Shown: positions 2,012 through 63,869 of the stretch, piece by piece
Position numbering within the stretch: the stretch's first letter is position 1
Layout: every line of letters begins with the position of its first letter
From: Acutalibacteraceae bacterium
GTDB taxonomy: Bacteria > Bacillota > Clostridia > Oscillospirales > Acutalibacteraceae
Direction of reading: 5' to 3'
NCBI GenBank assembly: GCA_045537915.1
Contig: JAZSQK010000010.1
Location: 5,717 to 69,716, forward strand
DNA: 64,000 nt
Translations under genes and position numbers: made by a program
The notes under the pieces: generated by a model
What the model saw: the letters and a program-made list of their open reading frames with translations, nothing else
Database searches by the model: none
What the model was told of the DNA's origin: nothing

Positions 2012-2082
2012 TTAAAAGATGTTAAATAGCCTTTGTTTGTGTCAGTACAGAGTTAGTCGCTCTGCACTGCCACTTCTTTGTT

Positions 2083-2310
2083 TCAATGAATTTTCGAACA
2101 TATTTCTATAAGCATATGTATATGGTCAGGACACGCCTCGGCTTCTATTATATTTACACCTTTTTGTTCACATAATTTCCTTAAGATTTTTCCTATGTCT
2201 GTTTTTATCTCTTTGTATATTGCTTGTCTGCAATATTTAGGCGCAAATACAATATGGTATTGACATCTCCACTTAGTATGTTCTAAACTATTTATGTCCT
2301 TCTCTTTCAT
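2083..2310 (-). pseudogene. tnpA: Truncated IS200-type Y1 transposase TnpA (75 aa; C-terminal part missing)
   Basis: MKEKDINSLEHTKWRCQYHIVFAPKYCRQAIY...ACPDHIHMLIEI matches the HUH (HIH) N-terminal two-thirds of IS200 TnpA. It stops right after the HUH motif, before the region that should carry the catalytic Tyr. AAGGAGG lies upstream of the ATG at 2310. Confidence 0.75.
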
Positions 2311-3776: not shown

Positions 3777-5375
3777 TTAAACCTTACGGGTATAGTCGGG
3801 AAGCAGCTTGGGCGATACGGTTGCAGTTTCGATTCCTGCAGACTTAATCTGGTTTTCAAACTCTTCAATATGTGAAAGGGTAAGTTTGCCTACCTTTACA
3901 TTTTTAGCCTTGGCAGCCGCATTCATACCTGCGCTTCTGCCGAAAACGATGATATCAAGAAGAGAGTTGCCCATAAGGCGATTTCTTCCGTGAATTCCTC
4001 CTACCGCTTCTCCTGCTACAAACAGATTTTCAACATTTGTAGTCATACAGTCAGAGCCGATATCAAGGCCGCCGTTCTGGTAGTGGAGTGTGGGGTAAAC
4101 AAGAATGGGCTCCTTACGAATGTCGATTCCGTATTTTTCAAACATTCTCCACATTGCAGGAATTCTCTTCATAATGGTTCCCTCTCCGCCGATCTTTTCA
4201 ATCATAGGAGTATCAAGCCATACGCCCTTGCCGTTGCCGGTTTCTACGCCGTTGTTTCTCTCGTTACATTCACGGATAATTGAGGCTGCAGAAACATCTC
4301 TGGTTTCGAGCGGATGCATAAACACCTCGCCCTTTTCATTAACCAGCTTTGCGCCCAGAGAGCGAACCTTCTCGGTAACAAGCGCACCGAAAATCTGCTC
4401 TGGATATGCAACACCTGTAGGATGATACTGCAGAGTTTCGGCATAAAGCAGCTTTGCGCCTACCCTGTAGCCAAGAACAAGGCCGTCAGCCGTTGCGCCG
4501 TAATGGTTAGAAGTCGGGAAGCCCTGATAGTGCATACGTCCTGCGCCGCCCGTTGCAATAATAACCGTTTTAGCTTTTGCAACAAGCAGTTCCTTGGTTT
4601 CCATATTCATAAGCACTGCGCCGGCAGCATTGCCGTTTTCATCCAAGATAAGCTCAACCGCAGCAGTAAAATCAACTACCGGAATATTGCGGTTAAAGAC
4701 CTCATCACGAAGGGTTCTCATTATTTCGGCACCCGAATAGTCCTTTGCGGCGTGCATACGCTTACGGGAGGTTCCTCCGCCGTGGGTTGTAACCATTGTG
4801 CCGTCGGCATCCTTATCGAACTCAACCCCTAAATTGCTTAGCCACTGAATTGCCTCTGGAGCATCGCAAACAAGCTTTGACAAAAGCTCTCTCTTTGCGG
4901 CAAAGTGACCGCCTCCGAAGGCATCTACAAAGTGGATTGCGGGAGAATCATTGGGCTTGTCGGCCGCCTGAATGCCGCCCTCGGCCATCATTGTGTTGGC
5001 ATCGCCTATACGAAGCTTGGTAACGATCATTACGTCTGCTCCGGCTTCGTTTGCCTCAATAGCAGCCGATGCGCCTGCTCCGCCGCCGCCGATTATAAGA
5101 ACATCGGTTTCATAATCGGGCGCCGAAAGGTCAACGCTTTCGGCAGTAATGCGGCTATGCGCCTGAAGAATTTCGGCTAGCTCCTTCGGCACCTTTTCTC
5201 CCTTGTTGGCGCCGATTTTAAGGACATCAAATTCTTCCTTTTTGTAGTCCGGATGGAAAGCCGCAAGAAGATCTTCCTTCTGCTTTGCTGTCATTCGGTC
5301 GGGCTCAAGAGCAATATTTTTTTCTCTTGCCGCTTCAACTGCAGCAATAGATTTCTGAAAATTTTCCGAATACAT
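3777..5375 (-). CDS. Soluble fumarate reductase/succinate dehydrogenase-type flavoprotein (FrdA/TfrA-like)
   Basis: DVLIIGGGGAGASAAIEA dinucleotide fold, LQYHPTG, LVTEKVRSLGA, TLHYQNGGL and LFVAGEAVGGIHGRNRLMGNSLLDIIVFGR match FAD_binding_2/succ_DH_flav_C motifs. About 90 aa of N-terminal extension. Confidence 0.75.
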   Translation of the reverse strand: MYSENFQKSIAAVEAAREKNIALEPDRMTAKQKEDLLAAFHPDYKKEEFDVLKIGANKGEKVPKELAEILQAHSRITAESVDLSAPDYETDVLIIGGGGAGASAAIEANEAGADVMIVTKLRIGDANTMMAEGGIQAADKPNDSPAIHFVDAFGGGHFAAKRELLSKLVCDAPEAIQWLSNLGVEFDKDADGTMVTTHGGGTSRKRMHAAKDYSGAEIMRTLRDEVFNRNIPVVDFTAAVELILDENGNAAGAVLMNMETKELLVAKAKTVIIATGGAGRMHYQGFPTSNHYGATADGLVLGYRVGAKLLYAETLQYHPTGVAYPEQIFGALVTEKVRSLGAKLVNEKGEVFMHPLETRDVSAASIIRECNERNNGVETGNGKGVWLDTPMIEKIGGEGTIMKRIPAMWRMFEKYGIDIRKEPILVYPTLHYQNGGLDIGSDCMTTNVENLFVAGEAVGGIHGRNRLMGNSLLDIIVFGRSAGMNAAAKAKNVKVGKLTLSHIEEFENQIKSAGIETATVSPKLLPDYTRKV

Positions 5376-46690: not shown

Positions 46691-47149
46691 ATCTTTATAT
46701 TTTAAATCCTCTGTTTGCCAGTTTTCGAGTACTCCTGCCATTTCGGCGGCTATCCGTCTTGCGCCCTCAAGGTCGTGCTCTTTGTAATTTCCACACTCGG
46801 CAGCCGTAGCTCCGGGTATCTCGCCCTCGAAATCTGCCGCAAACTCCATAGACTGTCTTACTATTTCAATGGCTCTTTTGTAAGAAACAGTATCTCGGGT
46901 AAGAAAATAAAATCCCGTTCTGCAACCCATCGGCCCAACATATATTACCGATTCTGCCTCAGCGGTGTTTCTCGCATAGGTCGCAAAAAGGTGCTCTAAT
47001 GTATGGGCGGCGGCAATCGGCAGATAATCATTATTGTTAGGTTTTTTCATTCTTATATCATAGGTTATGATATCTCCGTCTATTCTTGATATATACATAC
47101 CCTTATCGAGTGTATCGTGGTTGACGGTGAAACTTGCTATCTTTTTCAT
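46688..47149 (-). CDS. luxS: S-ribosylhomocysteine lyase
   Basis: SFTVNHDTL...HTLEHLFATYARN...GPMGCRTGFY (HxxEH plus Cys metal ligands). AGGAG SD before the ATG at 47149. Confidence 0.9.
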   Translation of the reverse strand: MKKIASFTVNHDTLDKGMYISRIDGDIITYDIRMKKPNNNDYLPIAAAHTLEHLFATYARNTAEAESVIYVGPMGCRTGFYFLTRDTVSYKRAIEIVRQSMEFAADFEGEIPGATAAECGNYKEHDLEGARRIAAEMAGVLENWQTEDLKYKD

Positions 47150-60529: not shown

Positions 60530-60805
60530 ACAAAAAAATAAAATCTTATCCCAGACAATAGGGACAAGATTTGAAAATCCTGCGGTGCCACCCAAATTGA
60601 TGAAAAATCATCCGCTCTGCGCTGTACTATCATACAGCCCCACGATGTAACGGTCGTGCCCCGTCAACTGCTACTCAAACCATCGGTTTTTTCGGTTGCC
60701 CTCATAAGTCCATTCGCCAAAGGTTTCACTGCTGTCATCCCACCGCCGACAGCTCTCTTTGAGTTTCTCGCTTTAGTTACTACTCTCAATCACAGGTTTT
60801 TTCTT
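60530..60805 (-). promoter_or_regulatory. T-box riboswitch leader, Trp-specific (specifier UGG)
   Basis: The minus strand shows AGAGAG in stem I and GCGAAUGGAC with UGG (complement of 60710-60712). The T-box sequence AAUUUGGGUGGCACCGCAG is at 60579-60598. The terminator is AAUCUUGUCCC...GGGAUAAGAUU plus a U-run. Confidence 0.8.
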
Positions 60806-60812
60806 TTAATAC

Positions 60813-60841
60813 ATATTAGCACTTTAAAAATAAAATGTCAA
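60813..60841 (-). promoter_or_regulatory. Sigma-70-type promoter of the T-box/trpB unit
   Basis: Minus strand reads TTGACA-17 nt-TAATAT. Confidence 0.65.
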
Positions 60842-60851
60842 TAGGAAGTTA

Positions 60852-60896
60852 AGGGCCAAGGGAAGAGGGAAAAGGGAAAAGGGAAAGGGGAAAGGG
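60852..60896. repeat. Homopurine (GGGAAA[A])n tract A (G-rich on + strand)
   Basis: AAGGGAAGAGGGAAAAGGGAAAAGGGAAAGGGGAAAGGG. A 39-nt pure purine run (60858-60896) with six G3+ runs. Confidence 0.95.
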
Positions 60897-60912
60897 CCTG
60901 AGCTGACTTTTT

Positions 60913-61134
60913 TTATCTTTTAGGATAATTCATTCCTTTCGGCAATCCTAACAGATAGTCAGCAGAAACATTAAAAAATGAACAAAGCTCCCGTATATCG
61001 TTTAACGAGGGTTCTGCACTACCGGTTTCCATTCGTGAAATTTTCATCTGGTGCATGTTTAACTTTTCCCCAAGTTGTGTTTGAGTTAGATTTTTTTCTT
61101 CTCTTAAATATCTGATTTTTTCGTTAAATTCCAT
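60913..61134 (-). CDS. XRE-family HTH transcriptional regulator (73 aa)
   Basis: MEFNEKIRYLREEKNLTQTQLGEKLNMHQMKISRMETGSAEPSLNDIRELCSFFNVSADYLLG is a canonical HTH_3. AGGAG lies 9 nt upstream of the ATG at 61134. Confidence 0.85.
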   Translation of the reverse strand: MEFNEKIRYLREEKNLTQTQLGEKLNMHQMKISRMETGSAEPSLNDIRELCSFFNVSADYLLGLPKGMNYPKR

Positions 61135-61165
61135 ATTATTCATCTCCTACGAAAATAATATTAAC

Positions 61166-61209
61166 ATAAACGAAAACTGTTTATTGACTTTTAAACGAAA
61201 ATCGTTTAA
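61166..61209. promoter_or_regulatory. Two operator-like palindromes in the divergent promoter region
   Basis: ATAAAC-GAAAACT-GTTTAT (61166-61184) and TTAAACG-AAAAT-CGTTTAA (61191-61209). The second lies between a TTGACT (61184-61189) and a TAAAAT (61206-61211). Confidence 0.5.
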
Positions 61210-61234
61210 AATTGTTTTCAAGGAGTTGATTAAA

Positions 61235-61522
61235 ATGACAATACTTGAAGAGCTGTATTACGGGAATATATGTCCGGCAGTAAAATCCATAAAGAAAAAT
61301 AGCGAGTTTTCAAAAATTTTAGAGGAAATTGTTAATCTGGAAACAAGTTTTACTGATAAGTTTGATAATGAAGAAAAGAAAGACTTTGAAAAGTTTTGCG
61401 AACTAAATAGCGACCTTAATGACATTCGCAATCTTGCTGTATTTAAGAATGGTTTTCAGTTAGGCTTGGGCCTTGCCGTAAATGCATTTTTGGACGAGGA
61501 TGCAAATTTCGAAGATTTGTAA
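61235..61522 (+). CDS. Small acidic hypothetical protein (95 aa) divergent from the XRE gene
   Basis: AAGGAG 9 nt upstream. MTILEELYYGNICPAVKS... No recognisable catalytic motif. Confidence 0.6.
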   Translation: MTILEELYYGNICPAVKSIKKNSEFSKILEEIVNLETSFTDKFDNEEKKDFEKFCELNSDLNDIRNLAVFKNGFQLGLGLAVNAFLDEDANFEDL

Positions 61523-61541
61523 AAGCAAAGAGAACAATTTA

Positions 61542-61574
61542 TTCCTTTCCCCCTTCCCCTTTCCCTCTGCCCTT
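61542..61574. repeat. Homopyrimidine tract B, the inverted counterpart of tract A
   Basis: TTCCTTTCCCCCTTCCCCTTTCCCTCTGCCCTT. Its reverse complement is of the same GGGAAA type as tract A. Confidence 0.9.
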
Positions 61575-61610
61575 GCAAAACAAAAAGCCGTCTGCTCAAA
61601 GCAGACGGCT
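61575..61610 (-). terminator. rpsR terminator
   Basis: AGCCGTCTGC-TCAAA-GCAGACGGCT, followed on the minus strand by TTTTTGTTTTGC. Confidence 0.8.
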
Positions 61611-61623
61611 TTAGCTTTGCTTA

Positions 61624-61863
61624 TTAGTCGTTTACGTAAGGAAGAAGAGCTACCTGACGTGCACGCTTGATGGCAGAGGTGAGCTCTCTCTGGTGAGCTG
61701 CACAGGTGCCGGTTGCACGGCGGGGAAGAATCTTTGCACGCTCAGAAATGAACTTGCGAAGACGAGCTACGTCCTTGTAATCGATAACTTCAACACGGTC
61801 AACGCAGAAGTGACAAACCTTTTTATGAGGTTTTCTGCGCATGGGTCTATCCATTTTCTCCAT
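61624..61863 (-). CDS. rpsR: 30S ribosomal protein S18
   Basis: [12 protein letters not shown]...[43 protein letters not shown]. Confidence 0.95.
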
Positions 61864-61925
61864 TTTTAACGCCTCCTATTAAAATTTAGGGCAATATGAA
61901 CAGCGGTTGTCCGCTTAAAATTAAA

Positions 61926-62354
61926 TTAGAACGGCAAATCGTCATCGGCCCCGCCCGAGAGGTCGGTGAATTCGGATGCACCTGCGTTTGAGAACGAAGT
62001 GGGAGCCTCACCTGCAGGAGCTGCTGCTCCGTCACGCTTGGACTCTACAAACTGAACATTGTTTGCAACAACTTCAAAAGCAGTGCGGTTTTTGCCGGTT
62101 TCTTTATCGACATAACGACGGGTCTGAATAGAGCCCTCGATACCGATAAGACTTCCCTTCTGGAAGTACTTTGTTACGAATTCTGCAGTCTGGCGCCAGG
62201 CAACAATATTGATAAAATCAGCCTCTGCCTGCTCGCCTGCTTTATAGCGGCGTGAAACTGCGATGGAGAAGGTCGTTACCGGAATGTTGCTGGGTGTGTA
62301 ACGCAGCTCCGGATCTGCGGTAAGTCTTCCTGTAAGAACAACAAGATTGAACAT
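61926..62354 (-). CDS. ssb: Single-stranded DNA-binding protein
   Basis: MFNLVVLTGRLTADPELRYT...ADFINIVAWRQTAE. Acidic tail DDDLPF. Confidence 0.95.
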   Translation of the reverse strand: MFNLVVLTGRLTADPELRYTPSNIPVTTFSIAVSRRYKAGEQAEADFINIVAWRQTAEFVTKYFQKGSLIGIEGSIQTRRYVDKETGKNRTAFEVVANNVQFVESKRDGAAAPAGEAPTSFSNAGASEFTDLSGGADDDLPF

Positions 62355-62372
62355 AATTTTTTCTCCTCCGAA

Positions 62373-62654
62373 TTACTTTCTGACGGTCATTACACGAAGA
62401 ACGCCTTCGGTAATTCCGGCAACACGCTCAAGCTCTGCGGGGAACTCGGGAGCGCTTTCAAATGTTGTGAAAACATAGTAGCCTTCGGCTTCGTCGTTCA
62501 CGAGATAAGCAAGTCTGCGCTTGCCCCAATCGTCAACGTTTACGACTGTTCCGTTATCGGCAATAAGAGCTGCGAACTTATCCTTGAGTTCGCCTACCTT
62601 TTCCTCTCCTCCTGCTACGGAGAATACCATGCATGCCTCATACTTATTTGTCAT
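62373..62654 (-). CDS. rpsF: 30S ribosomal protein S6
   Basis: MTNKYEACMVFSV...VDDWGKRRLAYLV. GGAGGTG SD. Confidence 0.95.
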   Translation of the reverse strand: MTNKYEACMVFSVAGGEEKVGELKDKFAALIADNGTVVNVDDWGKRRLAYLVNDEAEGYYVFTTFESAPEFPAELERVAGITEGVLRVMTVRK

Positions 62655-62832
62655 TTCGTTGCACCTCCTTCTGGACATTAGGCCCTATATTTTTAATATA
62701 GAGCAAGGGGCTAAAGATAAAAAATTTCATTAGCACACGACATTATAACAGACTTTTTTATTAAAGTCAACCTTTTTTCAGTATTGAAAAATGTATACAA
62801 TAGTGCTATACTACACTAAAAGGAGTGATATT

Positions 62833-63597
62833 ATGCTCTTAACCATTGATATCGGAAACACAAATATTACACTCGGACTCTTTGATGACTCGATTCTTCA
62901 GATGACAGGAAGAATTGCCACCGATGCAAAAAAGACCGCCGACCAGTACGCCATAGAGATAAAGGATATTCTCTCGCTTCACGCTCAGAGCGTTGCCTCG
63001 GTTGAGGACTGCATAATCAGCTCGGTTTCTCCCGTTGTTGCCGCCTCGGTAAGCGCTGCGGTCGCCATTCTTTGCGATACCGTTCCCCTTATGCTCGGCC
63101 CCGGTGTCAAAACAGGGCTTAATATAAAGATTGATAACCCCGCTCAGCTCGGCGCAGACCTTGCCGCAGGGGCTGTAGGAGCATTGGCAGAATACACAAT
63201 GCCCTGTATAGTTATTGATATGGGTACCGCAACCACCATTTCGGTTCTTGATGAGGATGGAAACTTCCTCGGCGGCTCTATCTGTGCAGGAATGAATCTT
63301 ACTTTGAGCGCCTTAGCTTCGGGCACCGCCGCTCTGCCTTCAATCAGTATATCCAATCCCAAATCGGTGATCGGACATAACACGGTCGACTGTATGCAGT
63401 CGGGTATCGTTTACGGCACCGCCGCCATGCTTGACGGACTTATTGAGCGCATCGAGGAGGAGCTTGGTCAGACGGCTACGGTCGTCGCTACGGGCGGTCT
63501 TTCAAAGGACATTATAAACTACTGCCGCAAGGATATCATATATAATGAAAACCTTCTTCTTGACGGCCTTCGCATAATTTACGAGAAGAATAATTAA
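62833..63597 (+). CDS. coaX: Type III pantothenate kinase
   Basis: MLLTIDIGNTNITLGLF...IVIDMGTATT...VATGGLS. AAGGAG SD. Confidence 0.9.
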   Translation: MLLTIDIGNTNITLGLFDDSILQMTGRIATDAKKTADQYAIEIKDILSLHAQSVASVEDCIISSVSPVVAASVSAAVAILCDTVPLMLGPGVKTGLNIKIDNPAQLGADLAAGAVGALAEYTMPCIVIDMGTATTISVLDEDGNFLGGSICAGMNLTLSALASGTAALPSISISNPKSVIGHNTVDCMQSGIVYGTAAMLDGLIERIEEELGQTATVVATGGLSKDIINYCRKDIIYNENLLLDGLRIIYEKNN

Positions 63598-63634
63598 AAG
63601 GGCCGAGGGAAATGTGTCTGCGACACCATCCTTA

Positions 63635-63690
63635 CCCCCCTTTTCCCTTTCCCTTTTCCCCTTTCCCTTTTCCCCTTTCCCTTTTCCCTT
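63635..63690. repeat. Homopyrimidine (CCCTTT[T])n tract C
   Basis: 56-nt pure pyrimidine run with eight C3+ runs and a ~14-nt periodicity (CCCTTTCCCTTTTC). Confidence 0.95.
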
Positions 63691-63792
63691 ATTTAATCCT
63701 GCCGAAAGGCAGATTAAAATATTATGAACTGCACCAAAGGTTTCTTATTTGGGCAAAACGGAAATTAAAGAAATGATGCCTCGGCACATTTA

Positions 63793-63836
63793 CTTTTCCC
63801 CTTTCCCTTTTCCCCTTTCCCCTTTCCCCTTTCCCT
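63793..63836. repeat. Homopyrimidine (CCCTTT[T])n tract D
   Basis: 44-nt pure pyrimidine run with six C3+ runs. It ends 34 nt upstream of the next ATG. Confidence 0.95.
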
Positions 63837-63869
63837 AAAACCCTATGGGCAGTATCGGAGGTAGAATTT

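Follow-up and report, generated by a model that had tools for sequence, protein, structure and literature searches.

GGGAAAN heptamer arrays at gene borders of an Acutalibacteraceae genome as putative arms of fold-back elements

What are the long purine and pyrimidine tracts that lie at gene borders within 3 kb of the window, i.e., the whole analyzed stretch of 64,000 nucleotides? A preliminary description had taken them for a lineage-specific intergenic repeat family with G-quadruplex (G4) or H-DNA potential. Recomputing the four tracts, full agreement was found for their positions and purine/pyrimidine runs:

60852-60896, plus strand: tract A, 5' (G-type) arm of element 1, tandem GGGAAAN heptamers
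61542-61574, minus strand: tract B, 3' (C-type) arm of element 1, four C3+ runs
63635-63690, minus strand: tract C, expanded 3' (C-type) arm of element 2
63793-63836, minus strand: tract D, 3' (C-type) arm of element 3, 44 nt, six C3+ runs

Tract A contains seven G3+ runs and a 39-nt pure purine stretch (60858-60896), while tract C consists of pyrimidines over its entire 56 nt and includes eight C3+ runs. Allowing at most one mismatch, 17 matches of GGGAAANGGGAAA were found in the window versus 0.72 expected from shuffles. All 17 fell within tracts A-D. The genome-wide census proposed earlier yielded 12 tracts at 8 loci of the 1.62-Mb genome (G000). This family accounts for all purine/pyrimidine runs of at least 27 nt, the next longest run being 24 nt. 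An assembly artefact, named beforehand as a possible refutation, was dismissed, since independent assemblies of sister species carry orthologous tracts (D in G017; C in G012 and G024; B in G012, G017 and G043).

The tandem unit is the 7-nt GGGAAAN, arranged head-to-tail, and TRF gave a period of 7 for tracts A-D. Using a strict lag detector, 18 period-7 arrays were found in G000, none for periods 5, 6 and 8 and one for period 9; 14 of the 18 were located outside long open reading frames. The preliminary description had listed GGGAAA, GGGAAAA and GGGGAAA as units and overlooked the period. Two further defining features had also been missed, the inverted pairing with the G-rich tract first and the enclosed cassettes. 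In G013 the units are GGGAAAT/C, and arrays of G013, G017 and G019 show T or C at unit position 7, which makes the homopurine character incidental. G000 also possesses heptamer-armed elements built of A/T-rich words, their anatomy being unchanged.

Three elements at trpB, rpsR and coaX

Tracts A and B form an inverted pair, the two arms of one element enclosing an XRE-DUF6809 gene pair:

60557-60802, minus strand: T-box leader
60913-61143, minus strand: cargo gene 1, XRE-family HTH protein (PF01381, E 6.5e-15)
61220-61522, plus strand: cargo gene 2, DUF6809 protein (PF20648, E 2.3e-23)
61584-61612, unstranded: bidirectional intrinsic terminator of the rpsF-ssb-rpsR operon (context), limiting read-through into element 1

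The positions at gene borders agreed with the earlier description, the T-box leader, the -35 of the trpB promoter (60836-60841) and the rpsR terminator being the neighboring features, and the intergenic repeat family at gene-unit borders is real. Tract A terminates approximately 10 nt upstream of the -35 of the opposite-strand trpB T-box promoter. At 3 of the 7 T-box promoters of G000 such a tract was found just upstream of the -35, at the UP-element position. The two cargo genes are divergently oriented, and a separate promoter-like site at 61184-61212 belongs to the DUF6809 gene. Folding the A/B cassette (735 nt), both the MFE and the centroid structure were closed by a long predicted A:B arm stem (z -3.9). 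Since the cargo genes are divergent with promoters of their own and a strong terminator lies outside of tract B, read-through transcripts comprising both arms should be rare.

The A/B loop lacks a PF05635 open reading frame and holds PF01381 and PF20648 instead. None of the 29 DUF6809 loci elsewhere in the family was flanked by period-7 arrays, and G000 contains another XRE-DUF6809 pair without arrays. Therefore, arms as part of a travelling XRE-DUF6809 unit were ruled out. For comparison at strain level, exact-protein look-ups for DUF6809, CoaX and IVP gave no match, and a related-locus search with DUF6809 gave no relative. At the orthologous trpB|rpsR site, conservation of the outer junction of tract B, beside the rpsR terminator, extends to G012, G017 and G043. 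The elements of G024 and G017 carry non-complementary arms there. The arms of element 1 were probably inherited from an older empty hairpin, the state of G043, whose loop would then have captured the cassette.

Tracts C and D are the expanded 3' arms of two small elements after coaX, both free of cargo and of open reading frames:

63598-63612, plus strand: short 5' arm of element 2, AAGGGCCGAGGGAAA, two units, directly 3' of the coaX stop codon
63614-63626, plus strand: mini-hairpin GTGTC-TGC-GACAC between the arms of element 2
63695-63715, plus strand: coaX terminator-like hairpin AATCCTGCC-GAAA-GGCAGATT (context), position conserved across the genus
63736-63846, plus strand: element 3, inserted into a conserved leader hairpin (loop region) that precedes an ECF S-component gene

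Tract length varies between species: arm C comprises about 15 nt in G024, 22 nt in G012 and 56 nt in G000. Element 2 is absent in G016, G017, G018 and G043. Its mini-hairpin is of a type shared with other heptamer elements of G000. The leader hairpin hosting element 3 has its halves at 63724-63735 and 63847-63861, and the element itself combines a degenerate 5' part with a mini-hairpin (63778-63785) and the junction ACATTTAC. The word of tract D also occurs in G017 in a shorter run (about 30 nt versus 44 nt in G000), and seven sister genomes carry (CTATTCA/CTTTTCA)n at the orthologous position. Tracts C and D have only short partners and were mostly single-stranded in the folds.

Turnover within the genus and a survey across phyla

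The tracts occur as inverted pairs, G-rich first and C-rich second, around small cassettes. Cargo-holding pairs of G000 are A/B, C47:4648/5546 (XRE and YpsA-like) and C47:47137/47591 (PF05635). The latter belongs to an element between dnaK and dnaJ (C47:47137-47619), where GGGAAAN arms surround a gene for a 23S rRNA intervening sequence (IVS) protein (PF05635, E 1.3e-41); the MFE and centroid folds of this insert were closed by an arm:arm stem (z -5.8). The orthologous dnaK|dnaJ spacers were all structured (z -4 to -11), with differing outer-helix words (GGGAAAG, AGGGCCN, ATGATGT, GGGAAGA, GGGATAAGG). This design of cargo-holding inverted pairs was also observed in G013, G017 and G019 and at the distant loci L104 and L114.

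Orthologous sites were compared in 28 genomes of the genus. They form a series from plain spacers over empty hairpins with other 7-nt words to varied cargo genes, and the trpB|rpsR, dnaK|dnaJ and coaX| sites were each found in empty, hairpin-only and several cargo-bearing states. In support of the insertion hot spots suggested earlier, the tracts mark sites where genes are gained and lost. Minimal spacers were found in G004, G007, G008, G016, G020 and G021. Words free of G-runs form orthologous arms at the D site (CTATTCA) and at dnaK|dnaJ (AATGCAA, ATGATGT, ATGAAAT). Despite this turnover of word, length and cargo, the flanking proteins are 74-99% identical among species. Array length and even the word itself turn over between sister species with arm complementarity usually kept, and unrelated small genes come and go in the loops. 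Conserved GC mini-hairpins of the GCGAAGC type adjoin the arms. PF05635 cassettes occupy differing sites between genomes (dnaK|dnaJ, coaX|, upstream of rarA-like and ribF-like genes), and the IVP proteins of 16 cassettes were 53-90% identical to the G000 copy. Recent duplicate cassettes, by which a mobile unit could be defined, were not found; the two PF05635 cassettes of G010 are only about 70% identical, with unrelated arms. Near the elements, Rfam yielded only T-box, tRNA and 5S, the remaining matches being far below gathering scores.

The family is not restricted to one lineage as had been supposed. Exact matches of the 20-mer were present in Cyanobacteria, Gemmatimonadota, Steroidobacteraceae, Planctomycetota and others, in all at least 120 loci. 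Sampling by protein, 82 PF05635 loci from many phyla were collected, of which 55 had inverted arms. For the 53 loci scored for arm period and polarity, the best period was 7 in 44, and the 5' arm contained more G than C in 52, more C than G in none, with one tie. Within the same loci, the density of period-7 arrays was 0.79 per kb near the PF05635 gene compared to 0.063 per kb elsewhere. Sampling by repeat, the loci gave 18 G-then-C versus 3 C-then-G arrangements. A systematically longer 3' arm was considered and dropped (21 versus 22 in the protein-sampled loci). An excess of G.U-compatible arm mismatches on the sense strand, considered as a sign of RNA-level selection, was not significant (78 versus 55, p 0.056) and is confounded by strand-biased deamination. 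At L124, (TCAGTTA)n, the complement of TAACTGA, is located beside a GGGGAAA-type arm. The PF05635 gene is the recurrent passenger across phyla.

Proposed heptamer-armed fold-back elements and alternative readings

With confidence evenly balanced, we interpret the tracts as GGGAAAN-array arms of heptamer-armed fold-back elements, an intergenic class present in many phyla. On either strand, the anatomy is a 5' G-rich array, optional mini-hairpins and a loop, and a 3' C-rich array, with a 7-nt period, inverted pairing and fixed polarity. In silico folding predicts pairing of the arms. Arrays would lengthen and shorten via replication slippage. Upon transcription of a whole element, as for dnaK-dnaJ, the arms would form a duplex of 20-45 bp to be cut by RNase III, which is encoded in G000, and such cutting would leave the host transcript undisturbed. 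RNase III cutting of a heptamer-stemmed IVS in 23S rRNA provides an experimental precedent (Coxiella, PMC4990558). In their design, the GGGAAAN elements match these inserts cut from rRNA by RNase III.

A possible though rather improbable alternative is that the elements are functionless, i.e., neutral or selfish slippage by-products at pre-existing intergenic hairpins, with complementarity arising by intrastrand template switching (quasi-palindrome correction) and cargo captured during repair of loop breaks. The fast turnover between well conserved flanking proteins is in line with this, as are the independent over-expansion of one arm (56 nt of tract C versus a 15-nt partner), the arm combinations without complementarity, the DUF6809 cargo without specific link to the arms and the lack of an available transposase or reverse transcriptase. 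The six genomes with minimal spacers show that the elements are dispensable. However, the strict G-first polarity (52:0) and the 7-nt period across phyla require a further cause, the cross-phylum link is specific to one protein family, PF05635, and placement in essential operons with retained downstream genes is repeated.

We consider it unlikely that non-B DNA/RNA structure of the G-rich strand, either G4 or H-DNA, modulates transcription, replication or recombination at the gene borders. A similar structural role was suggested for GGGAATC/GGGGAYT repeats, and such heptamers fold into stable G4 in vitro, prefer four units, occupy matching intergenic positions and are transcribed, but Rehm et al. 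found no regulatory role for them (PMC4692102). All four tracts, with 4-8 G3+ runs, satisfy the G3+N1-7 x4 rule as noted previously; the mostly unpaired tracts C and D would leave their G-rich template strand free, and the tracts upstream of T-box promoters fit as well. Nevertheless, the G4 motif is not a conserved property. Orthologous sites swap GGGAAAN for the heptamers without G-runs listed above, which argues against G4 as the common denominator, the A/T-rich elements of G000 have identical anatomy, and for paired tracts the hairpin competes with G4. H-DNA as a family property had to be given up due to the variable seventh position (T or C in G013) and the mixed-word orthologous arms. The H-DNA mirror-repeat class was rejected, as purine/pyrimidine mirror symmetry is not conserved across the family.

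Very unlikely in our opinion are arms serving as terminal inverted repeats (TIRs) of non-autonomous, MITE/REPIN-like transposable elements, moved in trans by a Y1/RAYT-type transposase recognizing the mini-hairpins. Inverted termini, empty and filled sites, PF05635 cassettes at varied sites and the GCGAAGC-type mini-hairpins beside the arms would suit such an origin, but the sole Y1 match of G000 is a fragment covering 66 of 121 profile positions:

2077-2274 of the window (C63:7793-7990): Y1 fragment, profile match with in-frame TGA

Mobility driven by RAYT or a reverse transcriptase was discarded, with only this broken fragment present and RVT_1 not found in G000. No target-site duplications were seen, arm length and word vary at one and the same site, and the diverged G010 cassettes with their unrelated arms are no recent copies. 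The MITE class was dropped for the same lack of fixed TIRs, target-site duplications and near-identical copies.

Least probable are arrays acting as multi-site platforms for a protein reading 7-nt repeats, with the Avd-like PF05635 protein, a single-strand binder of cold-shock or S1 type and a factor near the promoters of T-box genes as candidates. The shared location of arrays and PF05635 genes across phyla, the tracts at the UP-element position and the PF05635 copy number (1 in plain-spacer G004, G007, G008 and G016, 7-10 in array-rich G013, G010, G019 and G005, an uncontrolled trend among related genomes) speak in favor, and S1, Csp or CsrA binders were proposed for TAACTGA repeats (MacGregor 2015, PMC4679880); dozens of unrelated words, however, sit badly with a single sequence-specific binder. 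A Rho/rut explanation of the C-rich arms and of the polarity was discounted, as no Rho RNA-binding domain was found in G000.

Returning to the fold-back elements, a wider and rather doubtful reading unites all heptamer-armed elements across phyla in a single class of insertion cassettes compatible with operons, and gives this class three linked properties. A dedicated mechanism would lie behind the universal G-first polarity and the strict 7-nt period, possibly the synthesis of repeats on the two 3' ends of a break at the hairpin loop or an activity partnered with the Avd-like PF05635 protein; the loops would be gene-capture sites; and the stems would be RNase III sites uncoupling the insert from the host transcript. 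If true, the intervening sequences of 23S rRNA would merely be the first-noticed special case.

Relation to known repeats and significance

Catalogues of bacterial tandem heptamer repeats go back decades, with STRR used as a cyanobacterial fingerprinting marker, and intervening sequences in 23S rRNA have been on record since around 1990. To our knowledge, neither has an accepted origin or function. G-rich heptamer repeats were published for Xanthomonas (GGGAATC) and Nostoc (GGGGA(C/T)T), G-rich just past stop codons, C-rich before starts and with 70-75 convergent inverted pairs per genome (Rehm 2015, PMC4692102). Like GGGAAAN, they have a 7-nt unit with a G3-4 run, arrays of at least about 4 units, a strongly intergenic location and length and sequence differences between close relatives (PMC4692102). 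In contrast, the word here is GGGAAAN, the host a small-genome gut Clostridia genus, and the pairs enclose gene cassettes. Cyanobacterial STRR/TAACTGA repeats are likewise intergenic tandem heptanucleotides of patchy phylogeny, often just upstream of starts; reports chiefly deal with direct repeats and do not focus on inverted pairing, polarity or enclosed genes (PMC4679880; STRR heptamers also in Mrazek 2007, as cited there).

Likewise already published is the heptamer-stemmed, RNase III-cut IVS of Coxiella, with a 28-bp terminal stem cut inside by RNase III and GACAGAT heptamers, variable in number between strains, in the 5' arm (PMC4990558). S23p/IVP-type IVS of 23S rRNA are also cited there for Leptospira and others. 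Shared with our elements are terminal inverted repeats, a 20-45 bp stem around a loop, a stem partly made of variable-number heptamers, the PF05635 open reading frame in the loop (dnaK|dnaJ element only) and RNase III in the host. Unlike these IVS, the elements described here lie between protein-coding genes and not in an rRNA helix, A/B carries XRE and DUF6809, C and D carry nothing, and RNase III cutting is an analogy. REP/BIME/REPIN are similarly intergenic, palindromic, often within operons, strain-hypervariable and capable of forming stem-loops in mRNA. However, tandem 7-nt arrays of many words make up the arms here in place of one conserved 20-40-nt palindrome, and, unlike REP/REPIN-RAYT systems, G000 encodes no intact RAYT/Y1 transposase. 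In the literature, no paper linking G-rich heptamer repeats to heptamer-stemmed IVS was found.

The locus places both phenomena in one frame within a small gut Clostridia genome. Between GGGAAAN arms there is an IVS-protein gene (inside the dnaK-dnaJ operon), a regulator cassette unrelated to it, or no gene at all, and the sister-species series displays element states replacing one another at fixed sites. Any mechanism must meet the resulting rules: period 7 only, the G-rich arm always 5', PF05635 as preferred passenger, and an arm word that is free but usually complementary. In practice, arrays of this kind flag intergenic hot spots of extreme variability, with possible effects on MAG assembly and strain typing.

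Heptamer arrays in the window and the genome

The four purine/pyrimidine tracts claimed in the preliminary description were re-located at exactly the same coordinates:

Tract A: 60852-60896, contains a 39-nt pure purine run
Tract B: 61542-61574
Tract C: 63635-63690, pure pyrimidine, 56 nt
Tract D: 63793-63836, 44 nt

Using a 13-mer pattern with at most 1 mismatch, 17 matches were found in the window, all within tracts A-D, with 0.72 expected from shuffles. The window corresponds to C63:5717-69716 of the studied genome G000 (1.62 Mb, 42.8% GC, 69 contigs). A census of this genome yielded 12 tracts of the GGGAAAN family at 8 loci. All purine/pyrimidine runs of at least 27 nt belonged to this family, the longest remaining run comprising 24 nt. 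The tracts are not assembly artefacts, which had been named as a possible refutation, since orthologous tracts occur in the independently assembled genomes of sister species.

Tandem Repeats Finder (TRF) assigned a period of 7 to all tracts. Employing our own strict lag detector (the arm statistics depend on our own detectors throughout), 18 arrays of period 7 were found in G000, none of periods 5, 6 or 8, and one of period 9. In the sister genome G013 the unit was GGGAAAT/G/A/C at dozens of sites; therefore, the family is GGGAAAN, and its proposed homopurine nature is not strict. The initial observation was confirmed, and its interpretation, which included possible G-quadruplex (G4) or H-DNA formation, was partly supported.

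Neighboring arrays in G000 comprised three G-then-C arrangements, one C-then-C arrangement (C and D) and no C-then-G arrangement. The three G-then-C inverted pairs enclose different cassettes (ORF calls are our own):

Tracts A/B (element 1): divergent XRE (PF01381) and DUF6809 (PF20648) genes
C47:4648-5575 (arrays at 4648/5546): an XRE gene and a weakly YpsA/SLOG-like gene
C47:47137-47619 (arrays at 47137/47591): a PF05635 "23S rRNA intervening sequence protein" gene (E 1.3e-41), between dnaK and dnaJ, both named by reading their translations

Other heptamer-armed elements of G000 use other words, e.g., AATGAAT, AATGCAG and AAGTAAT. Their common anatomy is an array, a GC mini-hairpin (GTGTGGCTTCGCCAC, GTTCCCnnGGGAAC, GTGCGAAGCAC), a core, a second mini-hairpin and the complementary array. 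An Rfam search returned no family for these elements. Near the other end of the window (2077-2274, minus strand) lies an IS200/IS605-type Y1 transposase fragment with an in-frame TGA, covering PF01797 positions 2-67 of 121. It represents the sole Y1 match in the G000 genome.

Turnover of arms and cargo at orthologous sites

The sites were compared within the genus, whose genomes are related to each other and in part incomplete. For the trpB|rpsR site of element 1, relatives with 94-99% identical TrpB were used:

G043: element of ~170 nt, no cargo, degenerate GGGAAAG arms
G000: XRE-DUF6809
G024: a different XRE pair (33% identity), left arm GGGAAAN, right arm CCCNNGG-type
G018: an unrelated ORF of 183 aa, flanked by single-unit arms
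G005, G012: a further, different XRE pair
G017: no cargo, left arm (AATGCAG)n, right arm CCCTTT

The arms A and B are probably the legacy of an older empty element like that of G043. Given the predicted cargo promoters (61184-61212 on the plus strand, a weaker one on the minus strand) and the bidirectional terminator at 61584-61612, most A/B transcripts should carry one arm only. Arrays were found at 0 of 29 other DUF6809 loci of the family; the arms thus go with PF05635 and with particular sites rather than with the cargo of the window. A second divergent XRE-DUF6809 pair of G000 (C34:19240-19862) is without heptamer arms. In both cases seen in this genome, DUF6809 was paired with an XRE gene. 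DUF6809 was multi-copy in 44 of 121 sampled family genomes, with a maximum of 7 copies. XRE-DUF6809 may constitute an uncharacterized two-gene regulatory or toxin-antitoxin-like module.

Only 7 T-box leaders were found in G000. At three of them a GGGAAAN array, whose C-rich strand is the sense strand of the T-box, ends 9-50 nt upstream of the -35 region (a post hoc observation, crude P ~3e-6):

trpB leader: window 60557-60802, minus strand
C35:74685-74913
C12:84200-84420

The array position beside the trpB T-box promoter is kept in G043, G018 and G024.

The dnaK|dnaJ spacer was found in a minimal state, a plain hairpin of 65-69 nt (G007, G008), in an intermediate state of empty hairpins with the words GGGAARA, AGGGCCN, AATGCAA, ATGATGT and ATGAAAT, and in its largest state with inserts of 521-622 nt. 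The PF05635 gene in the insert is flanked by GGGAAAN arms in G000, G013 and G017 and by AGGGCCN-type arms in G019 and G010. All spacers are predicted to fold much more stably than their shuffled versions, with z from -4 to -11 and the outermost helix built from whatever word each of them carries. As the PF05635 proteins of this site are 57-90% identical compared to 74-94% for the flanking DnaK and DnaJ, their sequences suggest repeated occupation or fast evolution. A variant arm design was observed in the spacers of G041, G015, G011, G042 (loci L192, L197, L199, L200), G023, G022, G021 and G003. One side consists of a single heptamer (ATGAAAT or ATGATGT) alternating with differing GC mini-hairpins (tetraloop-like, GCGAAGC-type), the opposite side of the complementary heptamer alternating with other mini-hairpins.

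Further PF05635 genes were observed at other sites. The G013 locus L353 (C13:14800-17600) holds tandem cassettes, of which the first copy is degraded and contains a stop codon and the second is intact, with similar CCCTT-rich arms after each copy and a rarA-like gene downstream. At this site upstream of rarA, G020 and G011 likewise have a PF05635 cassette, and G000 has an (AATTCTG)n arm. Another PF05635 gene of G000, the second and a divergent one (C47:19075-19356, minus strand; 69 bits), has no GGGAAAN tract near it; after it come repeated tatatcatca/tgatgatata motifs interleaved with small hairpins, beside a tRNA-like sequence.

Six genomes of the genus have a spacer of just 66-81 nt 3' of coaX, made up of a terminator-like hairpin and a conserved leader hairpin (ATGAACTGCACC...GGGCAGTATCGGAGG) and followed by an ECF S-component gene. 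Two cargo-less elements are inserted in G000:

Element 2: 63598-63690, between coaX stop codon and terminator hairpin; 3' arm is tract C
Element 3: 63736-63846, within the leader-hairpin loop; 3' arm is tract D

Element 2 has a 5' arm of two units (AAGGGCCGAGGGAAA), followed by a mini-hairpin (GTGTCTGCGACAC) and the 3' arm, which in the orthologues measures ~15 nt (G024) and 22 nt (G012). It is missing from the orthologous site in G016, G017, G018 and G043, and G010 carries a PF05635 cassette there (145 bits) with the arms GGGATAAG. At the site of tract D, G017 has the identical word in a shorter run, and (CTATTCA/CTTTTCA)n was found in G043, G018, G005, G024, G012, G022 and G014. In the predicted folds C and D are largely single-stranded, pairing only with short partners. 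The halves of the leader hairpin (63724-63735 and 63847-63861) lie immediately 5' of the RBS of the S-component gene. This hairpin is kept in ~25 genomes of the genus, found no Rfam match, and could be an uncharacterized regulatory leader, possibly pantothenate-related given its coaX neighbor.

Period, polarity and PF05635 beyond the genus

At least 120 loci, with a GC content of 35-72%, contain the exact 20-mer GGGAAAGGGGAAAAGGGAAA; they come from Cyanobacteria, Gemmatimonadota, Steroidobacteraceae/Sinobacteraceae, Acutalibacteraceae, Planctomycetota and further groups. Close pairs among these loci were G-then-C in 18 and C-then-G in 3 cases. A sample of 16 genomes belonging to other families within the order of G000 gave no match to the 20-mer.

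For a sampling not selected on the repeat, 80 loci were drawn by their PF05635 protein. Of 72 loci, 26 had strict period-7 arrays within 350 nt to the left of the PF05635 gene and 25 had them within this distance to its right. The same scan yielded none for periods 5, 6, 9, 10 and 11 and two to three for period 8. Array density was 0.79/kb near the gene versus 0.063/kb elsewhere in the same loci. Local alignment identified inverted arms in 55 of 82 PF05635 loci, and 7 was the best period in 44 of 53 scored, with a median arm length of 36 nt. In the 5' arm of these 53, G exceeded C in 52, C exceeded G in none, and one was tied (p ~4e-16). Because an inverted repeat reads alike on both strands, the G-first polarity belongs to the element itself and does not follow from how the gene is oriented.

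Possible mechanism and relation to known heptamer repeats

Pairing of arm to arm was predicted in silico, and an RNase III gene is present in G000. Array length would change by slippage, and cargo genes may have been captured in the element loops. By analogy with intervening sequences (IVS), fully transcribed elements might be processed by RNase III. In the Coxiella IVS this enzyme cuts in a terminal stem of 28 bp, and the 5' part contains GACAGAT heptamers in strain-dependent number (Warrier et al., 2016; PMC4990558). G4 or H-DNA formation may occur at unpaired tracts, but orthologous arms do not conserve this property.

Heptamer simple sequence repeats (SSRs) predominate among long SSRs according to the work of Mrazek, as reviewed in a study of TAACTGA repeats (MacGregor, 2015; PMC4679880). 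For Xanthomonas and Nostoc, Rehm et al. (2015; PMC4692102) describe the heptamers GGGAATC/GGGGAYT, which form G4 in vitro with four units preferred, are biased toward intergenic positions, are transcribed without known function and occur as convergent inverted pairs (70-75 per genome); the sections consulted hold no mention of enclosed genes. Our literature search found no paper connecting heptamer SSRs in general with IVS-type cassettes. With these tracts a known, unexplained repeat class gains a new word and a new host, and the present analysis adds the cassette architecture, the series of orthologous sites and the rules of polarity and period.
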